In this document: in pieces, positions 6,906 through 23,950 of the stretch | Position numbering within the stretch: the first letter of the stretch is position 1 | Layout of the letters: every line of letters starts with the position of its first letter | Assembly (NCBI GenBank): GCA_963835725.1 | Contig: CAWIGM010000003.1 | Span: 116,487-180,486 of the forward strand | DNA length: 64,000 nt | DNA from: an uncultured Acidobacteriaceae bacterium | GTDB lineage: Bacteria > Acidobacteriota > Terriglobia > Terriglobales > Acidobacteriaceae | Direction: 5' to 3' | Made by a program: the position numbers and the translations under genes | Notes under the pieces: model-generated | Told to the model about the DNA's origin: nothing | What the model saw: the letters and a program-made list of their open reading frames with translations, nothing else | Databases searched by the model: none

Positions 6906-7790
6906 CTATGCTCCCGCTTTCTGTTCGGAATCGAAATATTTGCCGACGAGCAGCCGTAGCCGCTCCAGCGTGGCCGCCGGGACTGCGCTCTTCTGCGTGA
7001 TGATGGCGTTCTTCAACGCCGACCCGCATTTGCAGGAGCGCGTCTTCGGCATCGCCGCAACGGCATGACGAACAACACTGCAGGCGTTTTCGGCATTCTT
7101 TACCAGCACACCGATAATCTGCTCCACCGTCACGGCATCGTGCTCTTCGTGCCAGCAATCGTAATCAGTGACCATGGCAACCGTGGCGTAGCAGATTTCG
7201 GCTTCGCGCGCCAGGCGCGCCTCGGTGAGATTGGTCATCCCGATAACATCAAGACCCCAGCTGCGATACAGGTTCGATTCCGCTTTGGTCGAGAACTGTG
7301 GGCCTTCCATATTGAGGTAGGCGCCGCCCGCCTTCGCATTCACACCTGCGCGTCCACATGCGTCGAACGCGACCTTGCCCAGGTCACCACAAACCGGATC
7401 GGCTAGACCGACATGAGCCACAATACCGTCGCTGAAGAACGTGTCGATCCGATGCCGCGTACGATCGATGAACTGGTCAGGGATGACGAAGTCCAGCGGA
7501 TGATGCTCTTCCTTGAGCGAGCCGACGGCCGACAGCGACAGGATGCGCTCCACACCAAGCTGCTTCATGCCATGAACATTGGCGCGATAGTTGATCTCGG
7601 TGGGTGAGAAGCGATGTCCGTTGCCGTGGCGCGACAGGAATGCGACCTTGCGGCCTTCGAGCGTGCCCAGCATGTAGGGATCCGATGGCTTGCCAAACGG
7701 CGTATCCAGTGAAACCTGTTGAACGTCACTGAAGCCCGGCATGGTGTACAGACCGCTGCCGCCAATGATGCCAATCTCTGCCTGCTGCAA
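6906..7790 (-). CDS. mtnP: S-methyl-5'-thioadenosine phosphorylase
   Basis: IGIIGGSGLY, FLSRHGxGH, EGPQFSTKAES and VIGMTNLTEARLAREAEICYATVAMVTDYDCW are characteristic MTAP/PNP-family motifs. Confidence 0.85.
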   Translation of the reverse strand: MQQAEIGIIGGSGLYTMPGFSDVQQVSLDTPFGKPSDPYMLGTLEGRKVAFLSRHGNGHRFSPTEINYRANVHGMKQLGVERILSLSAVGSLKEEHHPLDFVIPDQFIDRTRHRIDTFFSDGIVAHVGLADPVCGDLGKVAFDACGRAGVNAKAGGAYLNMEGPQFSTKAESNLYRSWGLDVIGMTNLTEARLAREAEICYATVAMVTDYDCWHEEHDAVTVEQIIGVLVKNAENACSVVRHAVAAMPKTRSCKCGSALKNAIITQKSAVPAATLERLRLLVGKYFDSEQKAGA

Positions 7791-7840
7791 CTAAAGCTCC
7801 TGGAATGTAGTGTGCAAACTCACGATTATACAGGCAGCGC

Positions 7841-7870
7841 GGAAAGCAAACGGCGCGCTCGAGGCGCGCC
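7841..7870 (-). terminator. Rho-independent terminator after nuoN
   Basis: Minus strand reads GGCGCGC-CTCGA-GCGCGCC followed by GTTTGCTTTCC, directly downstream of the nuoN stop. Confidence 0.6.
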
Positions 7871-7893
7871 GCGTAATTAAAAATCTGACGGGA

Positions 7894-9465
7894 TTATCGC
7901 AGCAGCGCCGCCATTCCCTGCGCATTCTGGGTCAGGCCCAGCGACCAGTTCACCGCGTTGATGAAGAAGTTCGGGAACAATCCGATCCCAACCGTTCCGG
8001 CCGCTGTGATCGTCAACGCTAATGTCATCGCCGGACGCAAGCGGACAGGGTCGGCTTCGACCGGTTGACGCATCAGCATCGCATTAGCAATGCGCATGTA
8101 GTAGTACAGGCCGATGACGGCGTACAACACTGCGACTGCCGCCAGGGTGTAGTGCCCAGTCTGAATCAGGCTGAGGAAGATGAAGTACTTGCCCCAGAAG
8201 CCAGCCAGCGGCGGAATGCCCGCCAGCGACAACAGGAAAAGCAGCATCAGCATTGCTTCTGTCGGTGCCTTGAAGAAGAGGCCGGCAATGTCGTCGATCT
8301 CATCCCCAATAATGTTGCGGCGACGTAGCGAGGTGATCACGGCGAACGCGCCCAGGTTCATGAAGGTGTAGACCAGCAGGTACAGAAGGATCGCCATGAT
8401 GCCGGTCGAATTGTTGGTACCGTCACTGGCGACCAGACCGAGCAGCATGTAGCCTACGTGCGCGATTGATGAGTACGCCAGCAGCCGCTTCAGGTTGGTC
8501 TGTGTCATGGCCGCGAGATTGCCGCCGGTCATGGTCGCGATGGAGACAAACACCAGCAGCGGCACATACATCGACCGCAACGGGTACAGAGCGAAGAGGA
8601 AGATGCGGAGCAACATTGCCCATCCCGCAGCCTTTACGGCAACGGACATGAAGCCGGTAACGCTAGTGGGCGCGCCTTCGTAGGCGTCGGGTGCCCACTG
8701 ATGGAACGGGACGGCTGCGATCTTAAAGAGCAGCCCTGTCGTCGTCGTCAGCAACGCGAAAATCACGATCGGATCGTTGGGGCGGGTCGCCAAAACCTGC
8801 TGTAAGCCTTCGGCGATTTTCCCCAGGTTGGTGCTGCCTGTCAGACCGTAAAACAAGGACAATCCGTAAGCGAAGATACCGGACGAGAACGCGCCCAGCA
8901 GCAGATATTTCAGGGCAGCTTCATTGGAGCGTTTGTCGCGACGGAGAAACCCGACGAGCACGTACGTCGAGATGGCCATAAGTTCAAGGCCAATGAACAG
9001 CAGCACGATATCGAAGCCGGATGCCATGCACATCATGCCGATGACCGCAAACAGCATCAGCGCATAAAACTCGCCGTGATTTTCCTGCTCGATTTCCAGG
9101 TACCGGATTGAGATGAGAACCGCAATGGCGGCACCGGCGAGAAATAAGTAAGAGAAATAGATGGCAAACGGATCGATAACCAGCGTTCCCATGAAGCCAG
9201 TGCCGGCGAAGGCGAGATGCTGCGACTGCGCTACGTGATAAGCCCATTGGAGCTTGCCCACCGCAGCGGCGGAGAATGCAATGCCAGCCAGCGCAATGAA
9301 GGCGTTCGCGCGCTTCCATTGTTTGGGCAGGAACAGATCGATCAGCAGGATGCCCAGCGCGAACAGCGTCAGCAGAAGCATTGGCAGCGCGAGCAGGTAA
9401 TCCGTGGCCGAAAAGAATTGTGTGAGCGGGGTGGTCACAAGATCCTCAGTTGGTAATGGCCGCAA
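7894..9465 (-). CDS. nuoN: NADH-quinone oxidoreductase subunit N
   Basis: 523-aa polytopic ORF with the ND2/NuoN motif FHQWAPDAYEGAPTSVTGFMS. Overlaps the nuoM stop by 20 nt. Confidence 0.9.
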   Translation of the reverse strand: MRPLPTEDLVTTPLTQFFSATDYLLALPMLLLTLFALGILLIDLFLPKQWKRANAFIALAGIAFSAAAVGKLQWAYHVAQSQHLAFAGTGFMGTLVIDPFAIYFSYLFLAGAAIAVLISIRYLEIEQENHGEFYALMLFAVIGMMCMASGFDIVLLFIGLELMAISTYVLVGFLRRDKRSNEAALKYLLLGAFSSGIFAYGLSLFYGLTGSTNLGKIAEGLQQVLATRPNDPIVIFALLTTTTGLLFKIAAVPFHQWAPDAYEGAPTSVTGFMSVAVKAAGWAMLLRIFLFALYPLRSMYVPLLVFVSIATMTGGNLAAMTQTNLKRLLAYSSIAHVGYMLLGLVASDGTNNSTGIMAILLYLLVYTFMNLGAFAVITSLRRRNIIGDEIDDIAGLFFKAPTEAMLMLLFLLSLAGIPPLAGFWGKYFIFLSLIQTGHYTLAAVAVLYAVIGLYYYMRIANAMLMRQPVEADPVRLRPAMTLALTITAAGTVGIGLFPNFFINAVNWSLGLTQNAQGMAALLR

Positions 9466-11200
9466 CGATGGTTGTCTGACTCATCGCGGCAAACATTTTC
9501 GAGTTGTCATCCTGAGCAGCGACGACTTTGTTCTGGTCGTCATTGCCGAATGATCTGCGGTCTGTCGTATTCGAAGGAGCTGTGTTTGGGCTCTCTACCG
9601 CAGGCTGAACAGCAGGGCTGAACCCATGTTCCATTGATGGCACATTGGCCGGTTGCGTAGCTAACACCGGCTTGTTCGGGTTCAGGCCCGGATAATCGGG
9701 CCGAACCGTCGCTACCAGGTTGTTCACCGGGGTGGAGAGAATCTGGAAGAACGGCTTGGGATACAGGCCGATCCAGAAAGCGATCAGGACCAGCGGAACG
9801 AACGTCGCCAGTTCGCGTCCGGAGAGATCGAGCAGCTTTTCGTTCTTGGGATTCTCGACCTTGCCAAAGAACACGCGCTGATAGAGCCACAGCAAATACG
9901 CCGCGGCCAGGATCACGCCCGGCACCGCCCACGCGGCCCAGATTTTGTTCTCCATGAATGTACCTTGGAGAATCGTGAACTCGCCGACGAAGCCGTTCAG
10001 CAGCGGCAGGCCCATCGACGACATAAACATGATCAGGGTAATGGTCGCGTACACCGGCATGACGTTCGAGATGCCGCCGTATTCCGAGATCTCGCGCGTG
10101 TGGCGCCGTTCGTACAGGATGCCGACGATCAAGAACAGTGCGCCAGTGGAGATTCCGTGGTTGATCTGCTGCAGCACCGAACCGCTCAGCCCCAACGGGC
10201 TGAGAGCGAAGATCCCCAGGGTGCAGAAGCCAAGATGGCTGACCGACGAGTAGGCCACCAGCTTTTTCATGTCCTTCTGTATCAGCGAGACCAGCGCGCC
10301 ATAAATGATGCCGATCAGCGACAGCGTGATCATCAACTGGCGTACCCACGGTGTCATCGCGACTGCCGGGAAGAATGGCAGCGAGAAGCGAATCATGCCG
10401 TAAGTTCCCATCTTCAGCAGAACGCCGGCCAGGATGACCGAGCCCGCAGTGGGCGCCTCGACGTGCGCGTCGGGCAGCCAGGTGTGGAACGGGAACATCG
10501 GCACCTTGATCGCGAAGCCGAGAAAGAAGGCGAAGAACAACCAGATCGCCGCGTGGCCGCCGATCTTCGGCGCCGTCGCGTAAAGGTCGGGCAAGTAGAA
10601 GGTGTAAACGCCGGTCAGCGTGTGGTGATGGAAGTAAAGGAACAGGATGCCCAGCAGCATCAGCACCGAGCCAAACAGGGTGTACAGGAAGAACTTGATC
10701 GCCGCATAGAGCTTGCGCGGTCCGCCCCAGATGCCGATCAGCAGATACATCGGCACCAGCATGGCCTCCCAGAAAACAAAGAAGAGGAACATGTCGTTGG
10801 CCATGAAGACGCCAAGCATGCCGGTCTGCAGCACCAGGAACCAGATGTAGTATTCCTTCACCCGCTCCTGGATGGCGTTCCACGACGACAGGATCGAGAT
10901 GGCGCCGAGCAGGGTGGTCAGCATGATCAGCAGGAATGAAATGCCGTCGATGCCGAGGACGTAGCCGGAGCCGATGGTCGGGATCCAGTTGTTGGGCGAG
11001 CCTTCGACAAATTGAAAGCCGGCGCGCTCCTTCAGTGCCCAGAACCAGGGGATCAATGGCAATGAAACCGCGAAGCCGAGGAAGGCGAAAACGTTAGCGA
11101 TCCAGCGGATCGCGTCCTTGTTCTCCTTCGGCACCAGCAATAGGAGAAGTGCTCCCACCAGCGGCGTGAATAAAACGATCGAAAGAATGTGGTTATACAT
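9446..11200 (-). CDS. nuoM: NADH-quinone oxidoreductase subunit M, with ~90-aa hydrophilic C-terminal extension
   Basis: 584-aa ORF with the ND4/NuoM motif HTWLPDAHVEAPTAGSVILAGVLLKMGTYG. The tail from about PDYPGLNPNK onward is non-membrane and low complexity. Confidence 0.9.
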   Translation of the reverse strand: MYNHILSIVLFTPLVGALLLLLVPKENKDAIRWIANVFAFLGFAVSLPLIPWFWALKERAGFQFVEGSPNNWIPTIGSGYVLGIDGISFLLIMLTTLLGAISILSSWNAIQERVKEYYIWFLVLQTGMLGVFMANDMFLFFVFWEAMLVPMYLLIGIWGGPRKLYAAIKFFLYTLFGSVLMLLGILFLYFHHHTLTGVYTFYLPDLYATAPKIGGHAAIWLFFAFFLGFAIKVPMFPFHTWLPDAHVEAPTAGSVILAGVLLKMGTYGMIRFSLPFFPAVAMTPWVRQLMITLSLIGIIYGALVSLIQKDMKKLVAYSSVSHLGFCTLGIFALSPLGLSGSVLQQINHGISTGALFLIVGILYERRHTREISEYGGISNVMPVYATITLIMFMSSMGLPLLNGFVGEFTILQGTFMENKIWAAWAVPGVILAAAYLLWLYQRVFFGKVENPKNEKLLDLSGRELATFVPLVLIAFWIGLYPKPFFQILSTPVNNLVATVRPDYPGLNPNKPVLATQPANVPSMEHGFSPAVQPAVESPNTAPSNTTDRRSFGNDDQNKVVAAQDDNSKMFAAMSQTTIVAAITN

Positions 11201-11212
11201 TATTGAAATCCA

Positions 11213-11247
11213 GCAATTAGCAATTAGCCGTTAGCAACTAGCTAAAT
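11213..11247. repeat. Heptamer tandem repeat (GCNNTTA x5) immediately upstream of the nuoM start
   Basis: Plus strand reads gcaatta gcaatta gccgtta gcaacta gctaaat. Confidence 0.85.
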
Positions 11248-11412
11248 CAAAATCGGGTGTCATCCTGAGCGCAGGCGCGCTTTTCGCGCCGCAAGCGTAC
11301 CCCGGGCTTCCGCCCGGGCTAATCACTTCCGCCCTTGGGGCTCAAGACCCAGTCTCACTCTCAAAGAACGTTCGGTCACATCGGACCGCACTGACAACCG
11401 ACAACTGTTCCT

Positions 11413-13542
11413 TCACCACTTCACGACGTAATAGAAAACGAAACCAACCAAACCCGCCACCATGACTAGCGCATACCACTGCACCAGGCCCCACTGCACC
11501 AGGCGCACCGGATACGACGCCAACCGCGTCACAACGGCCACACCATTGACGAAGAGGCCGTCGATAATCCACTTGTCCCACAGGTTCGACACGGTTCCGG
11601 CCATACGCGTGATCCAGCCTGCGCCGTTGACCGTACCGTCAATCACGTCGGCATCGAACTTCCACAAGCCTTCGCCGAGACCCATCACGCCTAGTCGCAC
11701 GTCGCCAACTTTCTTGCGGCCGGTGAATACCCAGTCGTAGATTTCGTCGACGTACCACTTGTGGAACAGCGTCGTGTAGAACGCAGGAGCGGCTTCCTGG
11801 ATCGGCTCCTTGTAGCCCTTGTCGGCCTTCTTGTACGCCCGCTGGGCGAGCCACCATCCCAGGATGGCCGCGGCGATGGAGGCTGACATCAGCACATACT
11901 CCGTGGGATTGGTGTGCTCTACCTGCTTCTCTCCGGCGGCCACTTGCGCGGCGTCGCCTTCGTGTTCAAGCACAACCGCTTCCTTCGCGAACACCGGCTC
12001 TAGGAACTTGCCAAAACGATCCGATCCGCCGAGGCTGTGAGGCATGCCAAGCAGCCCCGCGCCGATCGAGCAGATCGCCAGGATCACCAGCGGCACCGTC
12101 ATGGTCTTGGGCGATTCGTGAATGTGGTGCTCGACTTCATGACTCATACGCGGCTTGCCAAAGAACGTCAGATAAATAAGCCGGAACATGTAGAACGATG
12201 TCAGCAGCGCGGTGAAGAATCCGATGTACCACAGGTAGCGAAACGCGCCGCCTTCGCGCGACCAGGTCTCCCAAAGAATGGCGTCCTTGGAGAAGAACCC
12301 GGCAAAGCCCGGAATGCCGGAGATCGCCAGCGTCGCCACCAACATGGTGCCGAAGGTGGTCTTGATCTTCCCGCGCAGATTGCCCATGAACTGCATCTCC
12401 TGCTCGCCGCTCATGGAGTGGATCACTGATCCGGCTCCGAGGAAGAGCAGCGCCTTGAAGAACGCGTGCGTGAAGACGTGGAAGACACCAGCGGCAAAGG
12501 CGCCAACACCGAGCGCCAGGAACATGTAGCCGAGTTGCGAAACCGTCGAATACGCCAGGACGCGCTTAATGTCGTTCTGCACCAGGGCGATGGAGGCCGC
12601 AAAGATGGCAGTCAGCGCGCCGACGATTGCAACGGTCTTCATCGCCGTGGGCGCGAGTACAAACAGCGCATTCGAGCGCGCGACCATGTAGACGCCGGCG
12701 GTAACCATCGTCGCTGCGTGGATCAGGGCCGAGACAGGGGTCGGACCTTCCATCGCATCGGGCAGCCAGACGTACAGAGGAAATTGTGCGGACTTGCCGC
12801 AAGCGCCGACGAACAGGCAAAGACAGGCAAATGTAATCACGGGATCGCCGATGGCGAACTGCCCGCTGCGGGCCAGATGATTGATGGCCGTGAACTGCAC
12901 CGAACCGAAGTACCATGCGATACTCAGCAAGCCGAGAAGGAATCCGGCGTCGCCGACGCGATTCGTGATGAAAGCTTTATTGGCGGCGGTCGAAGCCGAG
13001 TGCCGCTGGAAGTAAAAACCGATCAGCAGGTACGAGCACAGGCCTACACCCTCCCAGCCGACAAACATCAGGGCATAGTTGTTGCCCAGGATCAGCGTCA
13101 GCATGGAGAACATGAATAAGTTCAGGTAGCCGAAGAAGCGGTAGTAGCCGCCTTCGTGCGCCATGTAGCCCATCGAGTAAATGTGGATGAGCATGCCCAC
13201 GCCGGTGACAAAGAGCAGCCAAATCGAGGACAGCGGGTCGAGCAGGAAACCGGCATCGGCATTGAACTGCGCCGCACCCCCGTGCATGGGATAAGCCAGT
13301 GACGTGCTGCCGGTGCCCAGCCAGGTGAACAGGATTGTTTCGAAGGGTTTGCCGGGGCTAGCGGCTGAGTATCCGGTGTACTGCCAGACGGCGAGGCAGG
13401 CCCACACGAACGCCAACACAACCATACCGACGCAGACGCCGTTCACCGCCGACTTCGAAAGCTTGCGTCCGAAGAAGAACATGCAAGCCGCCCCGAAGAC
13501 CGGGAACAGGGGAATCAACCAAATGTGCTCTAAGAAAAACAT
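11413..13542 (-). CDS. nuoL: NADH-quinone oxidoreductase subunit L
   Basis: 709-aa ORF with the ND5/NuoL motif LYVWLPDAMEGPTPVSALIHAATMVTAGVYM and a long C-terminal amphipathic arm region. Confidence 0.9.
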   Translation of the reverse strand: MFFLEHIWLIPLFPVFGAACMFFFGRKLSKSAVNGVCVGMVVLAFVWACLAVWQYTGYSAASPGKPFETILFTWLGTGSTSLAYPMHGGAAQFNADAGFLLDPLSSIWLLFVTGVGMLIHIYSMGYMAHEGGYYRFFGYLNLFMFSMLTLILGNNYALMFVGWEGVGLCSYLLIGFYFQRHSASTAANKAFITNRVGDAGFLLGLLSIAWYFGSVQFTAINHLARSGQFAIGDPVITFACLCLFVGACGKSAQFPLYVWLPDAMEGPTPVSALIHAATMVTAGVYMVARSNALFVLAPTAMKTVAIVGALTAIFAASIALVQNDIKRVLAYSTVSQLGYMFLALGVGAFAAGVFHVFTHAFFKALLFLGAGSVIHSMSGEQEMQFMGNLRGKIKTTFGTMLVATLAISGIPGFAGFFSKDAILWETWSREGGAFRYLWYIGFFTALLTSFYMFRLIYLTFFGKPRMSHEVEHHIHESPKTMTVPLVILAICSIGAGLLGMPHSLGGSDRFGKFLEPVFAKEAVVLEHEGDAAQVAAGEKQVEHTNPTEYVLMSASIAAAILGWWLAQRAYKKADKGYKEPIQEAAPAFYTTLFHKWYVDEIYDWVFTGRKKVGDVRLGVMGLGEGLWKFDADVIDGTVNGAGWITRMAGTVSNLWDKWIIDGLFVNGVAVVTRLASYPVRLVQWGLVQWYALVMVAGLVGFVFYYVVKW

Positions 13543-13543
13543 A

Positions 13544-13613
13544 GTAATTAGCCGTTAGCAATTAGCACTTAGCCAAACTGACCACTGGCAACTGGCCACT
13601 GGCTACTGCTTCT
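13544..13613. repeat. Ten consecutive in-phase heptamers filling the nuoK-nuoL spacer
   Basis: gtaatta gccgtta gcaatta gcactta gccaaac tgaccac tggcaac tggccac tggctac tgcttct (70 nt). Confidence 0.9.
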
Positions 13614-13919
13614 TCACCACTTCAACAAATCCACTTCGTCCACATTTACCGTCTCCTTGTTGCGGAAGAAGGCAATGATGATGCCCAGCCCGACGGCGGC
13701 TTCGGCCGCAGCATCGGTGATAACGAAGATGGAAAAAACTTGTCCGTGCAATCCGTACAGCCTCGAGAACGCAACCAGGTTCAGGTTCACGGCGTTCAGG
13801 ATCAGCTCGATCGACATCAGGATGATGATCACGTTCCGGCGGGTCAGCACGCCGATGGTGCCAATGATGAACAGCGCCGCCGCAACAACCAGGTAATGCA
13901 ATGTTGTGATCTCAGTCAT
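13614..13919 (-). CDS. nuoK: NADH-quinone oxidoreductase subunit K
   Basis: 101-aa, 3-TM ORF with [17 protein letters not shown] and [21 protein letters not shown], typical of NuoK/ND4L. Confidence 0.9.
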
Positions 13920-13929
13920 AAGAAACTCG

Positions 13930-14007
13930 GCAATTAGCCGTTAGCAATTAGCAAAACCTTTGCCGGTTATAACCGGCCACTGACCACTAGCCACTGGCCA
14001 CTGCTTC
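13930..14007. repeat. Heptamer repeats plus a 16-nt palindrome in the nuoJ-nuoK spacer
   Basis: gcaatta gccgtta gcaatta gcaaaac; then palindrome GCCGGTTATAACCGGC (13962-13977); then cggccac tgaccac tagccac tggccac tgcttc. Confidence 0.85.
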
Positions 14008-14526
14008 TCAAATCCTCTTCTTCGCCATGACTACAGCGCCTACGATGGCCACCAGCAGCAGCAGCGATGCAACCTCGAACGGCAGCATGTAATTGCCATA
14101 GAGCGCCAGTCCGATCTGCTGCGTGTTGTCGCCTTCGAGCCCGCGGAAGCTCTGCAGAAACGCGGCCGGAAATCCGCCGCGCCCGCTGCGCAGCACGAAT
14201 GCCAGCAGGCCGCCCAACGCTAGCGCGGCGATTGTTCCGACCGCCCACTGCTTGTTGAACTGATATTCGCGAATGTTCTGTTCGAGGTTGATCAGCATGA
14301 TTACGAACAAGAACAGCACCATGATTCCACCGGCGTAGAGGACGATCTGGACGCCAGCGACAAATGGGGCGTACAGCATGAGGTAAAAGCCGGCCAGCGA
14401 AAGCAGGGTCACAATGAGCGACAGCGCCGCGTGTACAGGATTGCGCCGGGTGATCACCGCGATCGCCGAAACGATGGCCATCACCGCGAGAAAGTAGAAG
14501 AAAAATGTTGTGGCAACTGGTGTCAT
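14008..14526 (-). CDS. nuoJ: NADH-quinone oxidoreductase subunit J
   Basis: 172-aa, 5-TM ORF in the conserved position between nuoI and nuoK. NuoJ/ND6-like FVAGVQIVLYAGGIMVLFLFVIML. Confidence 0.85.
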   Translation of the reverse strand: MTPVATTFFFYFLAVMAIVSAIAVITRRNPVHAALSLIVTLLSLAGFYLMLYAPFVAGVQIVLYAGGIMVLFLFVIMLINLEQNIREYQFNKQWAVGTIAALALGGLLAFVLRSGRGGFPAAFLQSFRGLEGDNTQQIGLALYGNYMLPFEVASLLLLVAIVGAVVMAKKRI

Positions 14527-14533
14527 AAAGTCA

Positions 14534-14641
14534 GCAATTAGCCCTTAGCAATTAGCAAAATCAAAACCGTAAGTTCGAATTCAGAAACCCTCGTCATAGA
14601 CTGCAAAACTAACTGGCCACTGGTCACTGACCACTGGCCAC
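14534..14641. repeat. Heptamer repeats at both ends of the nuoI-nuoJ spacer
   Basis: gcaatta gccctta gcaatta gcaaaat at 14534-14561, and tggccac tggtcac tgaccac tggccac at 14614-14641. The last unit overlaps the nuoI stop codon. Confidence 0.85.
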
Positions 14642-15102
14642 TACTTCTCGTACCTCACCGGCTTCGGACCCTCTTCCAGCGCCTGCTGGTCCAGCACCAT
14701 GCCGTCGCGGGTGTAGAGAGCCATCTCGAAGTCAGGCGTCAACTCCAGCGCGTCCGTCGAGCACGCCTCGGCGCACAGGCCGCAGAACAGGCAGCGGCTC
14801 AGGTCGTAGGTCCAGGTCACCGGGAATTTCCGCTTGCTCACCGGATCGCGGTCGCCCTTGATGACGATCAACTGCTCCGGGCAGGCTAGCGCGCACAGGT
14901 TGCAGACGATGCACTTGGAGTGACCTGATCCCTCATCCATGCGCAAACGCGGCTGTCCGCGAAAGCGTTCGGCAACTTTTGGCCGCTCCAGCGGATATTG
15001 CTCGGTGACAGCCTCGCTCGGGGCCTGGTAATTGAATGTGACCTTCAGACCCTTCACCAGATCAACTAGCAGGATCTTGCGAAGCAGCGGCGGCAGACTC
15101 AT
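14641..15102 (-). CDS. nuoI: NADH-quinone oxidoreductase subunit I (2x[4Fe-4S])
   Basis: Two ferredoxin motifs, [12 protein letters not shown] and [11 protein letters not shown]. The ATG at 15102 forms an ATGA overlap with the nuoH stop. The longer ORF-track N-terminus (to 15498) lies inside nuoH and is rejected. Confidence 0.9.
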
Positions 15103-16380
15103 CGCAGCACCCCCAGAATCGCCGATGACATCTCGGGCAGCAGTCCTGCGATCGCGGTGGCAATCAATACCCCGAGTCCAGTCGGCAGCAGAACCTTCCA
15201 GCCGACTTTCATCAGCTGGTCGAAGCGGTAGCGCGGGAACGTACCGCGATACCAGATGTACAGGTACATGAAGAACGCGACTTTCGCGACGAACCAGAAG
15301 ATGTCCTGCACGCGCTCGCGAACGCCGGGGGCAAAGAGCACCAGACCGACGACGCCAAGGAGCAATCCAAAGACTGCCAGGCCGACCGTCTGGATCTTCA
15401 TTTGCGGAATTTTCGGCATACGCGCCGCGCCGAGCAGGCACAGGCCAGCAAGGCCCATCAGCGTCAGGCCTGGGACAAACGAGAACGCCACGTCCCACAC
15501 TGTGCCACCCAGCCAGTTCGGGAAGGGCCGCATCCAGCCACCCAACCAGAGCGTGACCGCGATCGCCGAAACCGCTAGCATGGCCGCATATTCGGCCAGG
15601 AAAAAGAGCGACCAGCGGAAGCCGCTGTATTCGGTGTGAAAGCCGGCGACTAATTCGGACTCGGCTTCGGGCAAGTCAAAGGGAGCGCGATTGGTCTCGG
15701 CCACCATAGCAATGGCAAAAACCATGAAGGCGATAAAGCCCAAGCGGGAAGAATTTGAAGATGAACCAGGTATGCTGCGCCGCCTGTGCCTCGACAATGC
15801 CGATCATGCTCAGCGTGCCCGTGCCCGTCTGCAAACTGGTCATCATGACGGCGCAGACAATCGCCAGACCCATGGCAATTTCGTACGACACCATCTGCGC
15901 ACTCGAGCGCAAGGAGCCCATCAGCGGGTAATGTGAGTTCGATGACCAGCCCGCCATGATGATGCCCAACACACCCAGCGACGAAACGCCGAGCATGAAG
16001 AGAATGCCGATGTTCATATCGGTCACGGCGTGGGTGCGTCCGAAGGGGACGACCAGGAACGTCGTGAAGGCCGTCATCGTGACGACGACCGGCGCGCTCC
16101 AGAACACCAACTTGTCGGCGTCGTGCGGAATGATGTCTTCCTTGATAAGCAGCTTCAGTGCGTCGGCGAAGGGCTGCAGCAATCCGTGCGGGCCGACGCG
16201 CATGGGACCGAGGCGGATCTGCATGTGCGCGAGAATCTTGCGCTCCAGCCAGTTCATCGCAATCACCGCCAGCGAAATGCCGATGGTGATGATCAGGATG
16301 TAGACGGTTGCCCAGAACATGCTGCCGGCTTCGCCAGGGGTGCCGGTTGAATGCAGGTATTTTGTGATCGCGTCAATCAT
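15099..16380 (-). CDS. nuoH: NADH-quinone oxidoreductase subunit H, with the frame broken by an apparent 1-nt insertion at the CCC run 15739-15741
   Basis: ORF 15676..16392 gives the NuoH N-terminal two thirds ([37 protein letters not shown]). ORF 15099..15797 gives the rest ([26 protein letters not shown]). The two halves join as ...FFPLG|FIAFMVF if one G of the GGG run (minus strand) is removed. Confidence 0.85.
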
Positions 16381-16594
16381 GGCTTGGCACACACGGGTTC
16401 GTTTTGAAAGGGCGCCTCTTCGTTTTGAAAGGGCACGGCTTCAGCCGTGCCGCCGACGTCACCTTTGAATGGAGCGTCGCGAGAAAAAGCTGCGCCCATC
16501 GCGCGTTGTTGAAAAGAGCACGACGCTGCCAGGTAGAAGCAGTGACGAAGTACGTCTGTCCGTTATTGGTCGCGTGCTCGCGGGTCGGCTTCAT
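16373..16594 (-). pseudogene. Remnant of a REP-associated tyrosine transposase (RAYT, IS200-like). Only ~43 N-terminal codons are recognisable.
   Basis: MKPTREHATNNGQTYFVTASTWQRRALFNNARWAQLFLATL parallels the N-terminus of the RAYT at 21081..21576 (TKTYFVTASAYTHQNLFQRTETADLLLATI). The HUH and Tyr motifs are absent. The rest of the ORF is a read-through of REP hairpins. Confidence 0.6.
16423..16451. repeat. REP hairpin (left flank of the RAYT remnant)
   Basis: TTTGAAAGG-GCACGGCTTCAGCCGTGCC, preceded by a tandem duplicate of cgttttgaaaggg. Confidence 0.8.
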
Positions 16595-16640
16595 GTCTGC
16601 TTTCCCTCAGGGGCTAAAGCCCTGCTTTTTCTTCGTCTTT

Positions 16641-16668
16641 GGCACGCCTGAAGGCGTGCCCTTTCAAA
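16641..16668. repeat. REP hairpin (right flank of the RAYT remnant), inverted relative to 16423-16451
   Basis: GGCACGCCTGAAGGCGTGCC-CTTTCAAA. It differs from the left copy by a compensatory G..C to C..G swap in the stem. Confidence 0.8.
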
Positions 16669-16673
16669 GCTCT

Positions 16674-17870
16674 TCACCGGTCCACCTCCCCCAGCACGAT
16701 GTCGAGCGTGCCGATCACCGCGACGACATCGGCGATCAGCAGGCCCCGCACCATCTTGTCGAGGGCTTGCAGATTGACGTAGGACGGCGGACGCACGCGC
16801 AACCTGTAGGGCTGCGTCGAGCCGTCGCTAACGATGAAATATCCCAGCTCGCCTTTGGGAGCTTCGATCGAGTGATAAACCTCGCCGGCGGGCGGCTTGA
16901 GGATTTTGGGCACCTTGGCCATGATCGGACCAGCGGGAAGGCTATCCACCGCCTGGCGAATGATGCGTACCGATTGCCGCATCTCCGCGATGCGCACCAG
17001 GTACCGATCGTAGGTGTCGCCGTTCACGCCGGTGGGAATCTCGAAGTCAAAGTTCTTGTAGGCTTCGTACGGTTGTGCTTTGCGCAGGTCCCACTTCACT
17101 CCGCTGGCCCGGAGAACTGGCCCGGTGACACCTAGCGCGATGCAATCTTCCGCCTTCAAAATACCGACGCCCTTTGTGCGGCGAACCCAGATACGGTTCG
17201 TCGTCAACAGCTCTTCGTATTCGTCGAGCTTGGGGAGGAAGGCGTCGCAAAAGTCTTGGCACTCTTTCTCGAACCCGTCATACGTCTCGTAAATACACCC
17301 GCCGATGCGGAATGCGTGCGTAGTCAGCCGCGCGCCGCAGTACTTCTCAAAAATCTCAAGGATGGCTTCGCGGTCGCGGAAACAATAGAACAGTGGTGTA
17401 AGCGCGCCGATGTCGAGCGCATGGGTGCCCAGCCAAACCTGATGGCTGGCGATGCGGCACAATTCCGTGAGGATGACGCGAATGTACTGCGCCCGTGCCG
17501 GAACCTCGGCATTGATCAGCTTCTCAACCGTCTCGCAGTAGCCCAGCCCATTCGAGACCGCCGCGACATAGTCCATGCGGTCGACATAGGGATTGAACAT
17601 CGCGTAGGTTCGGTTCTCGGCGATCTTCTCCACACCGCGATGCAGATAGCCAATCACGCATTCGGTGCCCAGAACCTTCTCGCCATCCAGCTTCAAGATG
17701 ACGCGCAGCACGCCGTGAGTCGAAGGGTGCTGAGGTCCCATATTGAGGACCATTTCCGTGGTGTCGAGGAAGGTCTGCTCTTTGGTATCGAGGTCGAGAT
17801 AGTCCACCACGCCGGGGCCGCTCTCACCGGGTTGCGCGTGGCGATAATCGGATTCGATCAGGTTCTTCAT
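16674..17870 (-). CDS. nuoD: NADH-quinone oxidoreductase subunit D
   Basis: [26 protein letters not shown] and the C-terminal DIVLGEVDR are NuoD/49-kDa motifs. The ATG at 17870 forms an ATGA overlap with the nuoC stop. Confidence 0.9.
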
Positions 17871-18679
17871 TGCGCGCTCTCGATGCCAATGTTGTTCTTC
17901 ACCCACTCGTTGTCCTGCTGCAGGATGGCGTAGTCCTTGCGCAGCGGGTGGCCCTTCCAGTCCTCGGGCATCAGGATGCGTTTGAGTTCCGGGTGCTCGT
18001 CGAACGTGATGCCGAACATGTCGAAGACCTCGCGCTCAAGCCAATTGGCTGTCGGCCAGATACTGACGGCGCTGCGCAGGTGATCGCCGTCCTTGATCTG
18101 CGTTTTAATCCGAATGCGTTCGTTCTTATGGAAGGAGTACAGGACGTAGACGATGTCGAACTGTGCTTCGCGCTTGGGATAGTGAACGGCAGTGACGTCG
18201 ACGCAGTAGTCGAACTGCTCGTCGTCGCGCATACGCAGCAGAATCTCGTAGGCAAGCGTGCTATCGACGACGAGGTAGTTCTGCCGGGCGTAGGTGCTGG
18301 CCTCGCGGAGGCCGGAGCCGTATTGCGCCTCCAGGCTGCTGACCAGGTCGCAATTCCACGGCTCCGGCTTGGGAGCTTCGGGTTTCGGTGCCGGTTTTGC
18401 AGGAGCGGCCGCAGGTTTTGCCGCGGCAGCTGCGGCCGGAGCGGCAGGTTTCGCGGGCGCTGCAGCGGACTTCACGGCAGCCGCTTCAACGGGCTTGGAG
18501 GCAGCCGCGGCCGGTTTGTCGCCGGTCAAAGGAGGTGCGACTGCCTGAACTGGTTGTGCTTCTGCTGCCGGTGCGGGCTTCGTCTCGGGAGCAGCCACCG
18601 CTGACGACGCTGGCGCTGAAGCTGCCGGGGCGGAGTCTTCGAGCGAGACCGGATTTGGCTCTTTCGTTTCCTCTGACAT
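17867..18679 (-). CDS. nuoC: NADH-quinone oxidoreductase subunit C with a ~115-aa Ala/Pro/Lys-rich N-terminal extension
   Basis: The C-terminal 150 aa hold the NuoC/30-kDa core ([51 protein letters not shown]). The start is uncertain, either ATG 18679 or GTG 18766. Confidence 0.85.
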
Positions 18680-18969
18680 GTCTATTTCTTCACTGGGAAC
18701 TGCTACCCCGTCTGGAAGTTTCAGTTGTACAGCGAAGGGGCTGCGGGAAGCTTGTACGCGAGTCACTTCACGATGTGATGGCGGTCACATTAGGGCTTGG
18801 AAGTGCAACATTCGGGGGAGAAGAGAAATGCCTGCGGCCTAATTTGCCGGCGGCGAGCTTGTCTTCCGCGTACCGGCGCTCATTAACGTTTTCCCAGAAT
18901 TCCGGCCCATAAAGTGCCCGATCCAATCTGCCGATGAACCTTTACGAGTAATTCCTTCAGGAGGAGTTC

Positions 18970-20781: not shown

Positions 20782-20982
20782 GAGGACCGTGGGGATCAAT
20801 AAGGAGTTGGCATCGCGAACGAGGAAAGGGATCGGCTGTTCGTACGCAGGGCAGGCCAGGCGTCACGCAGTCGTGATCTTCCTGCCCCGATATGAATCTT
20901 CAATTTCGCAGGGAACTTGCGTCGAGTGGCGAAAAGCAGATCCCTCACTCGCTCGTGATGACAATATCGGGGACTCCAGGAC

Positions 20983-21096
20983 AAGCTCGGATAGTGCGGC
21001 ACTTCGTTGCCTTGTCGGACAAAGCTCGGATGGCGGCGCTTCAGCGCTTTGTCGGGGAAACGCTTGGGTAGTGCGGCGCTTCAGCGCCGCGTTAAG
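20983..21096. repeat. Array of three ~37-bp REP units (left flank of the RAYT)
   Basis: Units end in hairpins gcggcacttcgttgcc, ggcggcgcttcagcgc and gcggcgcttcagcgccgc. The last 26 nt (21066-21091) are a perfect inverted copy of 21593-21618. Confidence 0.85.
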
Positions 21097-21576
21097 GTTC
21101 CATCCTCATATTGAGGCTTTAGCCTCGCGGGTACCTCGTCCAGACGTACTAAGGTTTTGGCCGAGGAATGCCGGTAATCCTCGGCGGCCGCGACCAGATG
21201 CCGGCGCACTGGATTCTCGTGGATATACGCCCTGATTCGTTCGTATTCTGCATCGTCACGAACCCGATGCTCGTAGTAGCTGGGCTGCCACACCGCTTTC
21301 AGCTTCAAAGGTCGCGTGAGAAAATCCGCCCTTGATCAACTGCATGGCGCGGCCGATTGAGTGATCGTCGTCGATCGTCAACAACAGATGCATGTGATTT
21401 GGCATGATCACGAATTCGTGCAAATCAAATTCACCCTTGTCACGATTGCGGACGATGGTTGCCAGCAACAGATCGGCGGTTTCGGTTCGTTGGAACAGGT
21501 TCTGATGCGTATACGCCGATGCGGTGACGAAATAGGTTTTGGTCATAAGGTACTTGGGGGCTAAAGCCCTGGTCAT
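21081..21576 (-). pseudogene. REP-associated tyrosine transposase (RAYT / IS200-like, Y1 HUH), frameshifted near 21295-21320
   Basis: ORF 21256..21576 carries HUH (IMPNHMHLLL). ORF 21081..21308, in the next frame, carries the catalytic-Tyr region VWQPSYYEHRVRDDAEYERIRAYIHENPV. Likely start is MTKTYFV at 21546. The 3' end reads into a REP hairpin. Confidence 0.8.
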
Positions 21577-21592
21577 GGGAGGGTCATCTTGA

Positions 21593-21755
21593 CGCGGCGC
21601 TGAAGCGCCGCACTACCCGAACAAAACAATCATGGCGCGGGCCTGAAAGTCCGGCACAACCCGAACAAACCGATCCTGGGGCAGACCTGAAGCCCCGCAC
21701 TACCAGAGCAAATACAATCTTTGCGCATGCCTGAAGTGCCACACGAGGCGAACGT
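21593..21755. repeat. Array of four ~41-43-bp REP units (right flank of the RAYT), inverted relative to the left array
   Basis: Hairpins gcggcgctgaagcgccgc, ggcctgaaagtccggc, gcagacctgaagccccgc and gcatgcctgaagtgccac are each followed by ac(t/a)acc(c/a)ga-like tails. Confidence 0.85.
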
Positions 21756-21763
21756 AGTTGGTT

Positions 21764-21798
21764 TAGCTGACGGCTGACGGCCGATAGCTGACAGCTTC
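21764..21798. repeat. Heptamer tandem repeat directly 3' of the nuoA stop
   Basis: tagctga cggctga cggccga tagctga cagcttc, ending 2 nt before the nuoA stop codon (21801-21803). Confidence 0.85.
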
Positions 21799-21800
21799 TC

Positions 21801-23642: not shown

Positions 23643-23671
23643 GCGTACAATTCGTCAGCGGGTGCACGGGA

Positions 23672-23932: not shown

Positions 23933-23950
23933 CGTTGCAGACGGCGGCGA

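Follow-up and report, generated by a model that had tools for sequence, protein, structure and literature searches.

The window, the whole 64,000-nt stretch of DNA analysed here, comes from a soil acidobacterium and carries arrays of heptanucleotide repeats on its minus strand, between the genes for respiratory complex I. The identities of nuoA, C, D, H, I, J, K, L, M and N were confirmed with Pfam and by alignment to relatives. The nuoH gene is split, and both the window and several of the related sequences resemble long-read assemblies with indels, so single-base details are uncertain.

Heptamer arrays in the nuo spacers

In the window, the I/J, J/K, K/L and L/M spacers each contain a (CAGTKGY)n array 0-5 nt past the upstream stop codon and a (GCTAANN)n array that reaches the downstream start codon (Table 1). 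The arrays described in an earlier sequence-only reading are all present on the minus strand, displaced by a few bases at most. Its statement that repeats occupy every non-overlapping nuo spacer was too broad, as the nuoD/H spacer (~290 nt, 16393-16673) has no heptamer array. The post-stop arrays that it named exist, but it missed a fifth, which follows nuoA with the same GAGAAG junction; the nuoL/M sequence CTGACAA CCGACAA, which it took for a different element, is the plus-strand reading of the post-stop family (CAGTTGT).

The I/J post-stop array (TRF period 7, 4.4 copies) begins within the gene, its first unit opening with the nuoI stop codon TAG. Unit 2 (TGGTCA) is the reverse complement of unit 3 (TGACCA), and units 1 and 4 (TGGCCA) are self-complementary. 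The short L/M post-stop array has orthologues of 3-8 units in relatives, and the nuoA unit CTGTCAG is the exact reverse complement of a pre-start unit of relatives, (GCTGACA)n.

Table 1. Heptamer arrays and associated features of the nuo operon in the window
Feature	Position	Strand	Units and context
nuoA post-stop array	21760..21800	-	TAG GAGAAG CTGTCAG CTATCGG CCGTCAG CCGTCAG CTAAACC
nuoI/J post-stop array	14611..14643	-	TAG TGGCCAG TGGTCAG TGACCAG TGGCCAG TT
nuoI/J pre-start array	14527..14561	-	ATTTT GCTAATT GCTAAGG GCTAATT GCTGACT TT; then nuoJ ATG (14524-14526)
nuoJ/K junction GAAG and post-stop array	13972..14007	-	CAGTGGC CAGTGGC TAGTGGT CAGTGGC CGGT; immediately 3' of nuoJ TGA (14008-14010)
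nuoJ/K pre-start array	13920..13957	-	GTTTT GCTAATT GCTAACG GCTAATT GCCGAGT TTCTT; then nuoK ATG (13917-13919)
nuoK/L junction AGAAG and post-stop array	13576..13613	-	CAGTAGC CAGTGGC CAGTTGC CAGTGGT CAGTT; 3' of nuoK TGA (13614-13616)
nuoK/L pre-start array	13543..13575	-	TG GCTAAGT GCTAATT GCTAACG GCTAATT ACT; adjoins the post-stop array at one end and nuoL ATG (13540-13542) at the other
nuoL/M junction AGGAA and short post-stop array	11386..11412	-	CAGTTGT CGGTTGT CAGTG CGG; 3' of nuoL TGA (11413-11415)
nuoL/M spacer interior (loop)	11251..11385	-	small conserved hairpin and REP-like, hairpin-rich insert
Rfam RF01687 match in nuoL/M spacer	11300..11342	+	26.2 bits, below the gathering score
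nuoL/M pre-start array	11201..11250	-	TTGATTTA GCTAGTT GCTAACG GCTAATT GCTAATT GCTGGAT TTCAATA; then nuoM ATG (11198-11200)

The heptamer repeats are real and lie far above chance. With up to two mismatches allowed, GCTAATTGCTAA has 15 matches (14 inside four nuo spacers) against 2.0 ± 1.4 in shuffles, and CAGTGGCCAGTGG has 11 (10 inside three nuo spacers) against 1.7 ± 1.3. When periods 4-12 were compared, period 7 alone was enriched (7 runs versus 0-1), and among ~32 crudely defined window spacers of at least 28 nt, a period-7 score of at least 16/21 was reached by nuo spacers only. The proposed GAAGCAG junction holds in part: exact GAAGCAGTRG occurs solely at the nuoJ and nuoK stops, and the nuoI stop has one mismatch. 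Arrays occupy four of the five internal nuo spacers versus none of the ~13 further spacers on this strand that measure 60 nt or more (Fisher p ~0.002, a type of value that is inflated here because neither the units of one array nor homologous loci are independent of each other).

Complementarity of the two arrays and predicted folds

The sequence-only reading described the post-stop and pre-start arrays as separate unit types. By their sequence they are not independent families but the two arms of one imperfect inverted repeat. The Watson-Crick fraction between the arms is 0.57, versus 0.435 ± 0.011 for shuffled arms, and was reached by none of 300 shuffles. Transition mismatches read on the sense strand are mostly G·U (91, versus 13 A·C); this share of 0.88 versus 0.73 ± 0.04 exceeds what composition predicts, although part of the G·U excess arises because both arms are G+T-rich on the sense strand. 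In 25 of 28 spacers the predicted duplex is more stable on the sense than on the antisense strand (mean -20.5 versus -12.7 kcal/mol).

Whole spacers of several relatives are predicted to fold strongly: the I/J spacer of locus L084 (-56.5 kcal/mol, z -5.2), the K/L spacer of L001 (-35.9 kcal/mol, z -3.5) and the L/M spacer of L004 (-94.3 kcal/mol, z -5.5), where the insert sits in the loop. In the window, whole-spacer folds are modest (z -0.6, -2.9, -0.6 and -1.9 for I/J, J/K, K/L and L/M), and the suggested hairpins are borne out in the predicted folds of the post-stop arrays: -20.2 kcal/mol for I/J (z -6.19, with 0 of 200 shuffles as good), -17.0 for J/K (z -3.21) and -12.7 for K/L (z -2.82). 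The nuoA array alone folds no better than shuffles (z -0.46), and many (CAGUUGY)n arrays of relatives fold weakly on their own.

The predicted unpaired share is lower in the 30 nt past the stops (0.23-0.38) than in the 28 nt around the starts (0.34-0.51), K/L excepted; the leader around the window's start codons is only moderately unpaired. The suggestion of an unstructured, stop-laden leader agrees with the finding that the window's pre-start arrays fold no better than shuffles (for example z -0.98 for K/L and -0.60 for L/M) and that stop codons close every one of the three forward frames in 27 of 32 such arrays from the compared loci. No Shine-Dalgarno sequence was found before the nuoJ, nuoK, nuoL or nuoM starts; a Shine-Dalgarno-like 4-mer precedes 20 of 56 crude ORF starts, versus a 13% background. 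Most pre-start arrays, the window's and those of relatives alike, have a U-rich lead-in, (G)GTTTTG(A)TTTG, on their 5' side.

Inserts within the spacers

The L/M interior contains a small conserved hairpin, GGTCCGATGTGACC plus GTTCTTTGAG, and a REP-like insert that terminates in GCTCAGGATGACA and, read on the opposite strand, bears a weak resemblance to Acido-Lenti-1. The Acido-Lenti-1-like motif (RF01687) scores above the gathering score in L001 (39.8 bits). A RAYT-like remnant flanked by inverted hairpins occupies the nuoD/H spacer. RAYT (Y1_Tnp) genes and GTAG-plus-hairpin REP-like units share spacers with heptamer arrays; many loci have them between the two arms, and several different junctions are involved.

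Conservation and turnover among relatives

We compared 54 nuo spacers from 19 related loci of a Korobacteraceae-like Acidobacteriota lineage, in which the array layout is seen again; some junctions have no spacer. Pre-start arrays are present in 32 of the 54, ending 0-22 nt (median about 3) from the start codon, and post-stop arrays in 26, starting 0-13 nt (median 3) past the stop; none was seen in the opposite orientation in these spacers. The position- and orientation-specific reuse noted earlier therefore extends to the relatives. Arrays are kept at the same junctions across contigs whose NuoL/M are only 83-93% identical, while the units turn over among GCTAATT, GCTGANN and GCGAANN before starts and among CAGTGGC, CAGTTGY and AGCAAYT after stops. 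The post-stop unit type (GTGG or GTTG) tends to agree across the junctions of one genome, a tendency that is not significant (permutation p = 0.13).

Position is conserved among relatives; copy number and unit sequence are not. Loci L003 and L004 are 97-98% identical around the operon, yet their L/M interiors differ. Sister lineages have a tight J/K junction (TGAcATG) and tight I/J and K/L junctions, L255 has K/L and L/M spacers without arrays, and in some loci REP or RAYT insertions stand in place of one arm. The I/J insertion can be read as GAGAAGT[AG...AT]GACA within an ancestral GTGA overlap. The sequence-only reading had argued against microsatellite slippage. Close relatives differ, however, in copy number (2-5 or more units) and in the sequence of the units, and entire spacers are gained, lost or replaced, from which we conclude that the arrays evolve like microsatellites. 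Their position and orientation are constrained despite this.

Nor are the repeats specific to nuo. Genome and metagenome scans found each family in at least 120 loci from many phyla, beside many unrelated genes and with the same orientation rule. Inverted array pairs have a fixed inside-out polarity (19 versus 2) that is independent of gene orientation. The same arrays also lie between convergent genes and in many unrelated contexts, where an intercistronic role is inapplicable.

Discussion

Our tentative reading, possible though somewhat short of probable, is that the spacers hold an inserted heptamer-repeat module, which would serve in the mRNA as a stem between cistrons, followed by a stop-laden leader free of Shine-Dalgarno sequences. 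Each array-bearing nuo spacer would be one module of heptanucleotide simple-sequence repeats, with a G/U-rich upstream arm, (CAGUKGY)n or (NNGUCAG)n, from 0-6 nt past the stop, a roughly reverse-complementary downstream arm, (GCURANN)n, reaching the next start codon, and optional REP-like or RAYT insertions between the two arrays. Modules would have been inserted at junctions that are tight in sister lineages, and would since have changed by slippage and replacement. Within the polycistronic mRNA, pairing of the two arrays would give a wobble-rich stem; in the window the self-complementary post-stop array would fold on itself rather than with the pre-start arm. The stem would compact the spacer and place both the stop and the start codon close to the base of a single helix, and could shield the upstream 3' end or be an RNase III-type processing site. 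The final GCUAAUU units would provide a weakly structured, A/U-rich leader lacking a Shine-Dalgarno sequence. This leader would be closed in all three frames because of a stop codon every 7 nt, so that stray ribosomes would terminate right before the start codon, where initiation would be independent of a Shine-Dalgarno sequence. Such stems may form in vivo and may influence mRNA stability or processing, and the leader may aid initiation or reinitiation. The arrays are, however, not essential, given the tight junctions of sister lineages and the array-free spacers of L255.

A neutral or selfish origin of the arrays is a serious rival to the RNA stem, though on balance we consider it rather unlikely. 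The arrays would be a palindromic microsatellite that perpetuates itself and might represent the ends of a small, non-autonomous mobile element. It would land at gene junctions, where insertions are tolerated, change size by slippage and have no role in nuo expression. Their regular placement would reflect only purifying selection against gene-damaging insertions; an insert has, for example, to provide a stop and a start codon without occluding the start. The turnover of spacers, copy number and units is consistent with this origin, as are the tight J/K junction of the sister clade, the I/J insertion readable within an ancestral overlap, the dissimilar L/M interiors of L003 and L004, the many-phyla spread beside unrelated genes, a fixed polarity like that of terminal inverted repeats, and the REP-like elements and RAYT genes nested in the same spacers. 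According to Mrazek 2007, as recounted in PMC4679880 and PMC4692102, heptamers top the over-represented long simple-sequence repeats of bacteria, and polymerase slippage has been proposed as their cause. Yet we found no transposase, target-site duplication or near-identical dispersed copies, the arrays sharing units rather than full-length identity. The G·U bias beyond composition, the persistence at the same junctions across NuoL/M divergence while unit types change, and the concentration in nuo spacers of the window also argue against a purely neutral origin.

It is improbable that the heptamers are reiterated sites for an RNA-binding (S1, cold-shock-like or ring-shaped oligomer) or DNA-binding protein that, when bound, sets translation or stability of the flanking cistrons. 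The strict 7-nt spacing of units with five conserved and two variable bases (GCTAA-NN, CAGT-NNN) and the unstructured pre-start arrays adjoining start codons without a Shine-Dalgarno sequence would suit such a factor, and the same idea was put forward for TAACTGA repeats (PMC4679880). The likeness of post-stop units within a genome points the same way but falls short of significance; orthologous junctions differ in pre-start family, a variation at odds with recognition by one sequence-specific factor; we identified no candidate for such a factor, and the many-phyla spread demands a very widespread or very unspecific binder. We likewise strongly doubt that the arrays matter at the DNA level, where they would be extruded as single-stranded hairpins or cruciforms and any RNA structure would be a by-product. 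Such hairpins would offer landing pads or recognition structures to single-strand Y1 transposases (RAYT, IS200-like), or would be hotspots of replication or recombination. In many loci the arms do enclose RAYT genes and REP-like hairpins, the polarity is independent of gene orientation, and the G·U bias also fits a hairpin of the non-template strand, because G·T is the best-tolerated mismatch in DNA hairpins too. However, the window I/J, J/K and K/L spacers have arrays without a REP or RAYT insert, the D/H spacer has a RAYT remnant without arrays, the local REP hairpins are built from GTAG plus a stem and bear no relation to the heptamers, and no tie was found between the heptamer sequence and Y1 transposase target motifs. 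Least credible are intrinsic terminators or attenuators, in which the post-stop hairpin and U-rich lead-in (GGUUUUGAUUUUG) would partially stop transcription between cistrons and set up an expression gradient. The I/J hairpin is followed by GUUAGUUUUG and was flagged by a terminator scan, and the lead-in precedes most pre-start arrays, but only one of the four spacers was flagged, and the U tracts, short and broken up as they are, mostly follow an insert rather than the array hairpin in the majority of relatives. Complex I subunits are required in equal amounts, and the essential nuoK-N lie downstream; the true operon-end terminator past nuoN looks quite unlike the arrays, G-C making up 8 of its 9 pairs.

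REP/BIME elements with RAYT transposases in enterobacteria and pseudomonads are hairpin repeats of intercistronic spacers that can stabilise upstream mRNA. The nuo spacers likewise hold hairpin-forming repeats, RAYT (Y1_Tnp) genes and GTAG-plus-hairpin units. The heptamer arrays, however, are tandem 7-nt units rather than ~35-nt palindromic units with a GTAG foot, and they flank REP-like inserts without being REP units themselves.

The STRR units CCCCAGT, TTGGTCA and CAACAGT seem akin to those post-stop units of the window that contain CAGT. Cyanobacterial STRR belong to the heptanucleotide long simple-sequence repeats of bacteria (Mrazek 2007, Mazel 1990, as cited in PMC4692102 and PMC4679880), and G-rich GGGAATC / GGGGAYT repeats occur in Xanthomonas and Nostoc (Rehm 2015, PMC4692102). 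These repeats share with ours the period of 7 and intergenic location, with some inverted pairs and some arrays within operons (pecE-pecF). Compared with these repeats, the arrays here have different units without G-quadruplex potential, a two-arm layout tied to stop and start codons, and a sense-strand G·U bias.

The TAACTGA direct repeats of marine Beggiatoaceae, Cyanobacteria and Bacteroidetes adjoin start codons without a Shine-Dalgarno sequence, and a role in translation was proposed for them (MacGregor 2015, PMC4679880). As with our pre-start arrays, they are intergenic tandem 7-nt units in 2-6 or more copies, oriented forward to the downstream gene and ending a few nt from its start codon, usually with the Shine-Dalgarno sequence missing and stop codons in the forward frames; the array alone has no predicted structure, and arrays also occur inside essential operons (PMC4679880). 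The unit here is GCTRANN (GCTAACT rotated is TAACTGC, one base off) and the host belongs to the Acidobacteriota. The pairing with a reverse-complement-type post-stop array and its fixed polarity are both undescribed in PMC4679880.

In Haemophilus influenzae, the (ATCTTTC)n repeat of hmw1A/hmw2A is one arm of a long 5'-UTR hairpin that is cut by RNase III (Rapun-Araiz 2025, PMC12721329). The heptamer repeat is transcribed there within an untranslated region and pairs with a G-rich arm in a long imperfect hairpin, an arrangement similar to the one predicted for our arrays. The hmw repeat works as a phase-variation switch for an adhesin gene of a pathogen; it lies in the 5' UTR, and just one of the arms is a repeat, of at least 11 copies (PMC12721329), whereas here both arms consist of 2-8 repeat units and the setting is a spacer between cistrons in a housekeeping operon. 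It nonetheless provides an experimentally shown route from a heptamer-repeat hairpin through RNase III processing to altered expression (PMC12721329). Heptamer repeats are widespread in bacteria, and the stop/start-bracketing form seen here, with two arrays that could pair in RNA, is a variant of those.

Layout of the heptamer arrays in the nuo operon

Pfam searches and alignment to relatives identified nuoA, C, D, H, I, J, K, L, M and N on the minus strand; none of nuoB, E, F and G was found among the ORFs scanned in the nuo cluster of the window. Read in mRNA sense, the I/J, J/K, K/L and L/M spacers, each named for its flanking nuo genes, share one layout: the stop codon is followed by a purine run (GAAG, AGAAG or AGGAA in the array-bearing spacers), a post-stop array of heptamers, a variable middle, a U-rich lead-in (GGTTTTGATTTTG), a pre-start array and the ATG. 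The post-stop units of the window spacers repeat with period 7 as CAGTGGC, CAGTGGT or CAGTTGY. The pre-start arrays are of the type GCTAANN, also with period 7 (GCTAATT, GCTAACG and GCTAAGT in the window), and end 0-17 nt from the ATG. nuoI is an exception: its purine run is part of the coding sequence, and the first heptamer unit includes the TAG. All of the arrays are intergenic, lying between the stop and start codons of Pfam-confirmed nuo genes.

The sequence-only reading had described these heptamer families and assigned them to every non-overlapping nuo spacer. The families are real, and the listing left out a fifth array, of post-stop type, behind the nuoA stop. The assignment holds for four spacers and fails at nuoD/H, which is non-overlapping, approximately 290 nt long and free of heptamers. 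The interpretation given there of the spacers as a whole is borne out in part.

Period 7 is the sole enriched period among 4-12, with 7 runs versus 0-1 at the other periods, and TRF returned 3.6-4.6 copies per array in the window. Allowing up to 2 mismatches, GCTAATTGCTAA matched 15 times versus 2.0 +/- 1.4 in shuffles and CAGTGGCCAGTGG 11 times versus 1.7 +/- 1.3; the exact string GAAGCAGTRG is confined to the nuoJ and nuoK stops. The 64-kb window has approximately 32 crudely called spacers 28 nt or longer; among these a high period-7 score was found in nuo spacers only, and nearly all arrays in the window and in the 20-kb loci of its relatives are nuo-associated.

The nuoC product has a long N-terminal extension rich in Ala and Pro. 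Between nuoA and nuoC lie a RAYT (Y1 transposase, Y1_Tnp) element and two plus-strand ORFs, for which a Pfam search gave no match. nuoH and the RAYT-like gene each occupy two reading frames relative to relatives. The nuoH frameshift is most likely an assembly indel, the gene being essential, and the two frameshifts suggest a long-read assembly. Because genes are split in the window and in many relatives, single-base indel errors are likely and the exact unit sequences should not be over-read. A further tandem repeat, detected by TRF, lies far from the nuo operon.

Coordinates of features in the window
Feature	Position	Strand	Remarks
Hairpin GGTCCGATGTGACC, then GTTCTTTGAG	11355-11390	minus	L/M spacer; small hairpin
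Acido-Lenti-1 (RF01687) match	11300-11342	plus	L/M insert
Apparent nuoH frameshift	~15736-15743		
nuoD/H spacer	16393-16673	minus	contains a truncated RAYT-like (Y1 transposase) remnant, MKPTREHATNNGQTYFVTAS...; without heptamer arrays
Region of the nuoA-nuoC separation	18767-21255		
ORF	18970-20781	plus	
ORF	20789-21235	plus	
REP-like tandem array	20979-21088		37-nt period
Y1_Tnp/RAYT-like gene	~21204-21546	minus	within 20979-21735; directly downstream of nuoA
Apparent frameshift in RAYT-like gene	~21301-21308		
REP-like tandem array	21603-21735		44-nt period
Post-stop-type array behind nuoA stop	21760-21800	minus	TAG GAGAAG CTGTCAG CTATCGG CCGTCAG CCGTCAG
Tandem repeat, GCGTTGAGGTTGTT...	36556-36647		15/30/45 nt

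Array placement is conserved among relatives and array sequence turns over

At least 16 public contigs encode an identical NuoK protein, and ten 20-kb loci were taken from them. At the DNA level, nuoK in these ten loci differs at 20-27 of 306 positions; NuoL and NuoM are mostly 83-93% identical to the window proteins. Nine more loci, with NuoK 90-92% identical, were included. The same operon is present on a Korobacteraceae MAG contig (L084), with a NuoM 91.6% identical, which assigns the window to a Korobacteraceae-like member of Terriglobia. A census of these 19 loci, some of them near-duplicates, covered 73 junctions and used a strict array detector that misses short or indel-ridden arrays.

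The 73 junctions comprise 19 tight junctions and 54 spacers. A pre-start array is present in 32/54 spacers, ending 0-22 nt from the start codon (median ~3) and lying in sense in 32/32; a post-stop array is present in 26/54, its first unit 0-13 nt past the stop, and 23 of the 54 carry both. Array orientation is identical throughout the census. The units themselves turn over, with GCTAATT, GCTGANN or GCGAANN, sometimes in series, before the start and CAGTGGC, CAGTTGY, CNGTCAG or AGCAAYT after the stop, and orthologous arrays range from 2 to ~8 copies with differing unit variants. Since unit type and copy number turn over under a constant orientation, the arrays are microsatellite-like in sequence and length and conserved in position and orientation. 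The earlier proposal of a position- and orientation-specific element, as opposed to slippage, therefore stands for placement, which is conserved in the 19 loci; copy number and units vary as slippage products do.

Several relatives have tight junctions or spacers without arrays. In a sister clade J/K is TGAcATG and I/J a GTGA overlap; K/L in one locus (L252) is TAAaccaATG, and another (L255) has K/L and L/M spacers without arrays. The window I/J spacer may be read as an insert in the ancestral overlap, GAGAAGT[AG...AT]GACA, the insert bringing a new TAG and a new ATG. Two loci, L003 and L004, are 97-98% identical on either side of L/M, and their alignment fails exactly at the interior of this spacer (12554-12650 in L003, 12555-12748 in L004). 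The L004 interior resembles that of L009, though L009 is only ~87% identical overall, a pattern indicative of spacer modules having been recombined or replaced. Given the tight junctions, the array-less spacers and the L003/L004 break, the array-bearing spacers can be dispensed with, probably arose by insertion, and undergo rapid exchange or replacement.

The two arrays form the arms of one inverted repeat

Judged by their complementarity, the two heptamer families are the arms of a single inverted repeat. The nuoA post-stop unit of the window, CTGTCAG, and the L004 pre-start unit GCTGACA are exact reverse complements, and the K/L spacers of two further loci (L001 and L259) have (AGCAAYT)n past the stop and (GCTAATT)n ahead of the start. 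In the best ungapped register, Watson-Crick pairs between the arms of 20 spacers amounted to 57% versus 43.5 +/- 1.1% when the arms were shuffled; neither the units of an array nor homologous loci are independent in these statistics. Transition-type mismatches on the sense strand comprised 91 G·U and 13 A·C, a G·U share of 0.88 versus 0.73 +/- 0.04 expected from composition. In duplexes predicted between the first 35 nt and the last 35 nt of each spacer, the sense RNA outperformed the antisense in 25/28 spacers (mean z, the fold energy relative to shuffles, -1.8).

All RNA structures described here are predictions. In relatives, the predicted whole-spacer folds are long stems that place the insert in their loop, at -56.5 kcal/mol (z -5.2) for L084 I/J, -35.9 kcal/mol (z -3.5) for L001 K/L and -94.3 kcal/mol (z -5.5) for L004 L/M. 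The post-stop arrays of the window are self-complementary, TGGCCA being palindromic and TGGTCA and TGACCA complements, and they are predicted to fold locally (-20.2, -17.0 and -12.7 kcal/mol; z -6.2, -3.2 and -2.8). The window pre-start arrays alone fold no better than shuffles (z -0.6 to -1.0), and predicted whole-spacer z values in the window are modest (-0.6 to -2.9). No SD-like (Shine-Dalgarno) 4-mer is present ahead of the nuoJ, K, L and M starts. No Rfam family matched over the heptamer arrays, either in window positions 7000-24000 or in L001.

Three candidate regularities were rejected. Stop codons in all three frames are found in 27/32 pre-start arrays and in 5/26 post-stop arrays read antisense, so the rule that stop codons always face the adjacent gene applies to the pre-start arrays and not to the post-stop ones. 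A helix joining the stop region to the start region had a mean z of -0.42 over 32 spacers, and pairing with the matched partner (-5.2 kcal/mol) gave no gain over a mismatched one (-5.8). Internal sigma-70 promoters were not predicted in the arrays of any spacer; the 15 kb scanned gave 2 sites, both within genes, versus 5.4 expected.

REP/RAYT elements occupy the same operon

The RAYT remnant in the nuoD/H spacer sits between the inverted hairpins CTTTGAAAGGGCACGCCTTCAGGCGTGCC ... GGCACGGCTGAAGCCGTGCCCTTTCAAA. Two relatives (L009 and L010) have an intact Y1_Tnp gene at this junction, and the D/H hairpin element also fills the I/J spacer of L005 and L008-L010. The tandem arrays flanking the RAYT gene downstream of nuoA are REP-like, with GTAG plus GCGGCGC-TTCA-GCGCCGC hairpins. 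In other relatives RAYT genes lie in K/L (L253) or in L/M (L005, L252, L257 and L258). Since RAYT genes occupy different nuo spacers, the complex I operon is a recurrent REP/RAYT landing site.

The sole Rfam match in window positions 7000-24000 was to Acido-Lenti-1, at a sub-threshold 26 bits. A second match, in the L001 insert (9797-9840, minus strand), scored 39.8 bits versus a gathering score of 37. Both lie in REP-like inserts, antisense to nuo, and here the motif behaves like a component of a dispersed hairpin insert, not like a free-standing sRNA gene. The small GGTCCGATGTGACC hairpin is kept in the L/M spacer of nearly all relatives, the remainder of the spacer being replaced, and may represent a functional RNA or protein-binding motif in its own right. 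Target-site duplication through repeated insertion and excision of transposons was rejected as a source of the heptamers, the insert flanks being inverted families and not direct repeats.

Arrays beyond nuo follow the same polarity

An exact scan for (GCTAANN)3GCTAA, with one genome per species, returned at least 120 loci, where by our own estimate approximately 1 is expected by chance at uniform composition. By record titles, the matches listed include ~29 from Acidobacteriota, 19 from Cyanobacteria, 20 from Bacteroidota and 13 from Desulfobacterota, along with Clostridia, Planctomycetota and others, proportions that are indicative only. A nuo spacer accounts for 1 of the 120 genome matches listed. 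Specificity for nuo was rejected as a general property, the array neighbors in Acidobacteriota MAGs being unrelated to nuo: the genes beside (GCTAANN)4 arrays are rplQ, ruvB, cbbQ, TMEM175, an IF-2B family gene and the genes of a cysteine desulfurase and an E2 acyltransferase. Long ORFs contained none of 139 GCTAANN arrays from elsewhere, as expected because the arrays hold stops in all frames.

With crude ORF calls, the GCTAANN arrays among the matches listed were sense in 18 cases and antisense in 5 when within 30 nt ahead of a start codon, and antisense in 48 and sense in 17 when within 30 nt past a stop codon. Close inverted pairs on the listed genome contigs (L011-L130) had the polarity 5'-TTAGC...GCTAA-3' in 19 cases and the opposite in 2. 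A metagenome scan for (CAGTTGN)2CAGTTG returned at least 120 loci (L131-L250); among the matches listed, arrays within 30 nt past a stop were sense in 32 and antisense in 5, and the reverse-complement family stood after CAGTKGN arrays 7 times and before them 0 times. Inverted-pair polarity is thus nearly fixed across phyla. Gene orientation cannot account for this rule, because a palindrome reads alike on both strands. As the same orientation and polarity appear in the genome and metagenome scans, the nuo spacers follow a general rule. In one MAG (L052), two inverted pairs have a conserved core of 25 nt in common, oppositely oriented in the two, suggestive of a dispersed element.

Relation to known repeats and possible function

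Heptanucleotide tandem repeats have been on record in bacteria since 1990. According to the accounts of Mrazek 2007 in PMC4679880 and PMC4692102, in many bacteria the long simple-sequence repeats (SSRs) most in excess are heptamers, and polymerase slippage has been proposed as their cause. G-rich heptamers of Xanthomonas and Nostoc occupy the same gene gaps in related species, with large differences in length and sequence (PMC4692102). In Beggiatoaceae, Cyanobacteria and Bacteroidetes, TAACTGA heptamers point forward and end a few nt short of start codons that lack an SD sequence; a translational role has been proposed for them (PMC4679880). In Haemophilus, a long hairpin in the 5' UTR, with (ATCTTTC)n as one of its arms, is cut by RNase III, affecting expression and repeat dynamics (PMC12721329). 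A literature search for heptamer repeats in Acidobacteria found no paper.

The nuo arrays resemble long heptanucleotide SSRs in their head-to-tail 7-nt units above chance, intergenic location, and variation in copy number and unit. They share with the TAACTGA type a forward placement a few nt from the start codon, the lack of an SD, forward stops and the absence of structure in the array alone. The unit differs (GCTAATT, GCTAACG, GCTAAGT and GCTGANN), the closest, GCTAACT, being a rotation of TAACTGC and one base off. Relative to the Haemophilus (hmw) type of repeat-arm hairpin, stems are strongly predicted in relatives, whereas the predicted folds of the window are local. The nuo arrays therefore belong to the known bacterial intergenic heptamer repeats, with new regularities.

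The likeliest mechanism, in our view possible but somewhat short of probable, is that gene junctions have received an inverted repeat built of heptamer repeats, which selection on the sense transcript has shaped. The groundwork, which we count as established, comprises the anatomy, the placement and orientation, the arm complementarity with its G·U bias, the predicted stems and hairpins as such, and the SD-less leaders closed in three frames. On this reading a stem or hairpin would form in the polycistronic mRNA straight after the stop codon. It would protect the upstream segment or serve as an RNase III-type site, and would shorten the through-space distance from stop to start. The last GCUAAUU units would provide an accessible leader at which stray ribosomes terminate and initiation occurs without an SD.

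The slippage-type variation and rapid replacement of the spacers are consistent with a palindromic microsatellite or mobile module of neutral or selfish nature, an explanation that we find rather unlikely but of appreciable weight; the sense-strand G·U bias speaks against it. Homogenization of units within a genome, a sign of a trans-acting factor binding reiterated sites, was present as a tendency only (p = 0.13), and such a factor appears quite improbable. We give similarly little credence to single-stranded DNA hairpins used by RAYT-type transposases: RAYT genes recur in the operon, but the heptamer arrays lack the ~20-40-nt palindrome with 5' GTAG of REP/BIME elements, which the inserts and RAYT-flanking arrays possess. 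That the arrays are internal attenuators of the operon is highly improbable; a terminator scan flagged the I/J hairpin (6 pairs, 3 of them G-C, tail GTTAGTTTTG) and left J/K, K/L and L/M unflagged.

A broader version of the transcript-selected reading is speculative and rather improbable, namely that a heptamer-armed palindrome of fixed inside-out polarity, 5'-(NNTYAGY)n ... (RCTRANN)n-3', defines a hitherto unrecognized class of spacer modules in many phyla, selected on the sense RNA and acting as a portable intercistronic device. Such a module would insert between stop and start codons. Its stem would shield the upstream message or serve in its processing, and would draw the two codons close to each other, and its stop-laden SD-less leader would drive initiation of the downstream gene.

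In the papers on heptamer repeats consulted here, we found no description of reverse-complement post-stop and pre-start families, of a fixed inverted-pair polarity across phyla, or of a sense-strand G·U mismatch bias. These three regularities give specific, testable predictions concerning RNA stems, processing sites and SD-less translation. The nuo spacers offer a compact comparative system, in which the junctions of one essential operon are either tight or filled by a two-arm module. If the portable device is real, it would at last provide a function for bacterial heptamer repeats (STRR, TAACTGA and similar); if the modules are neutral or selfish, they would represent a mobile microsatellite-based element that, along with REP/RAYT, has repeatedly invaded the junctions of a core respiratory operon.
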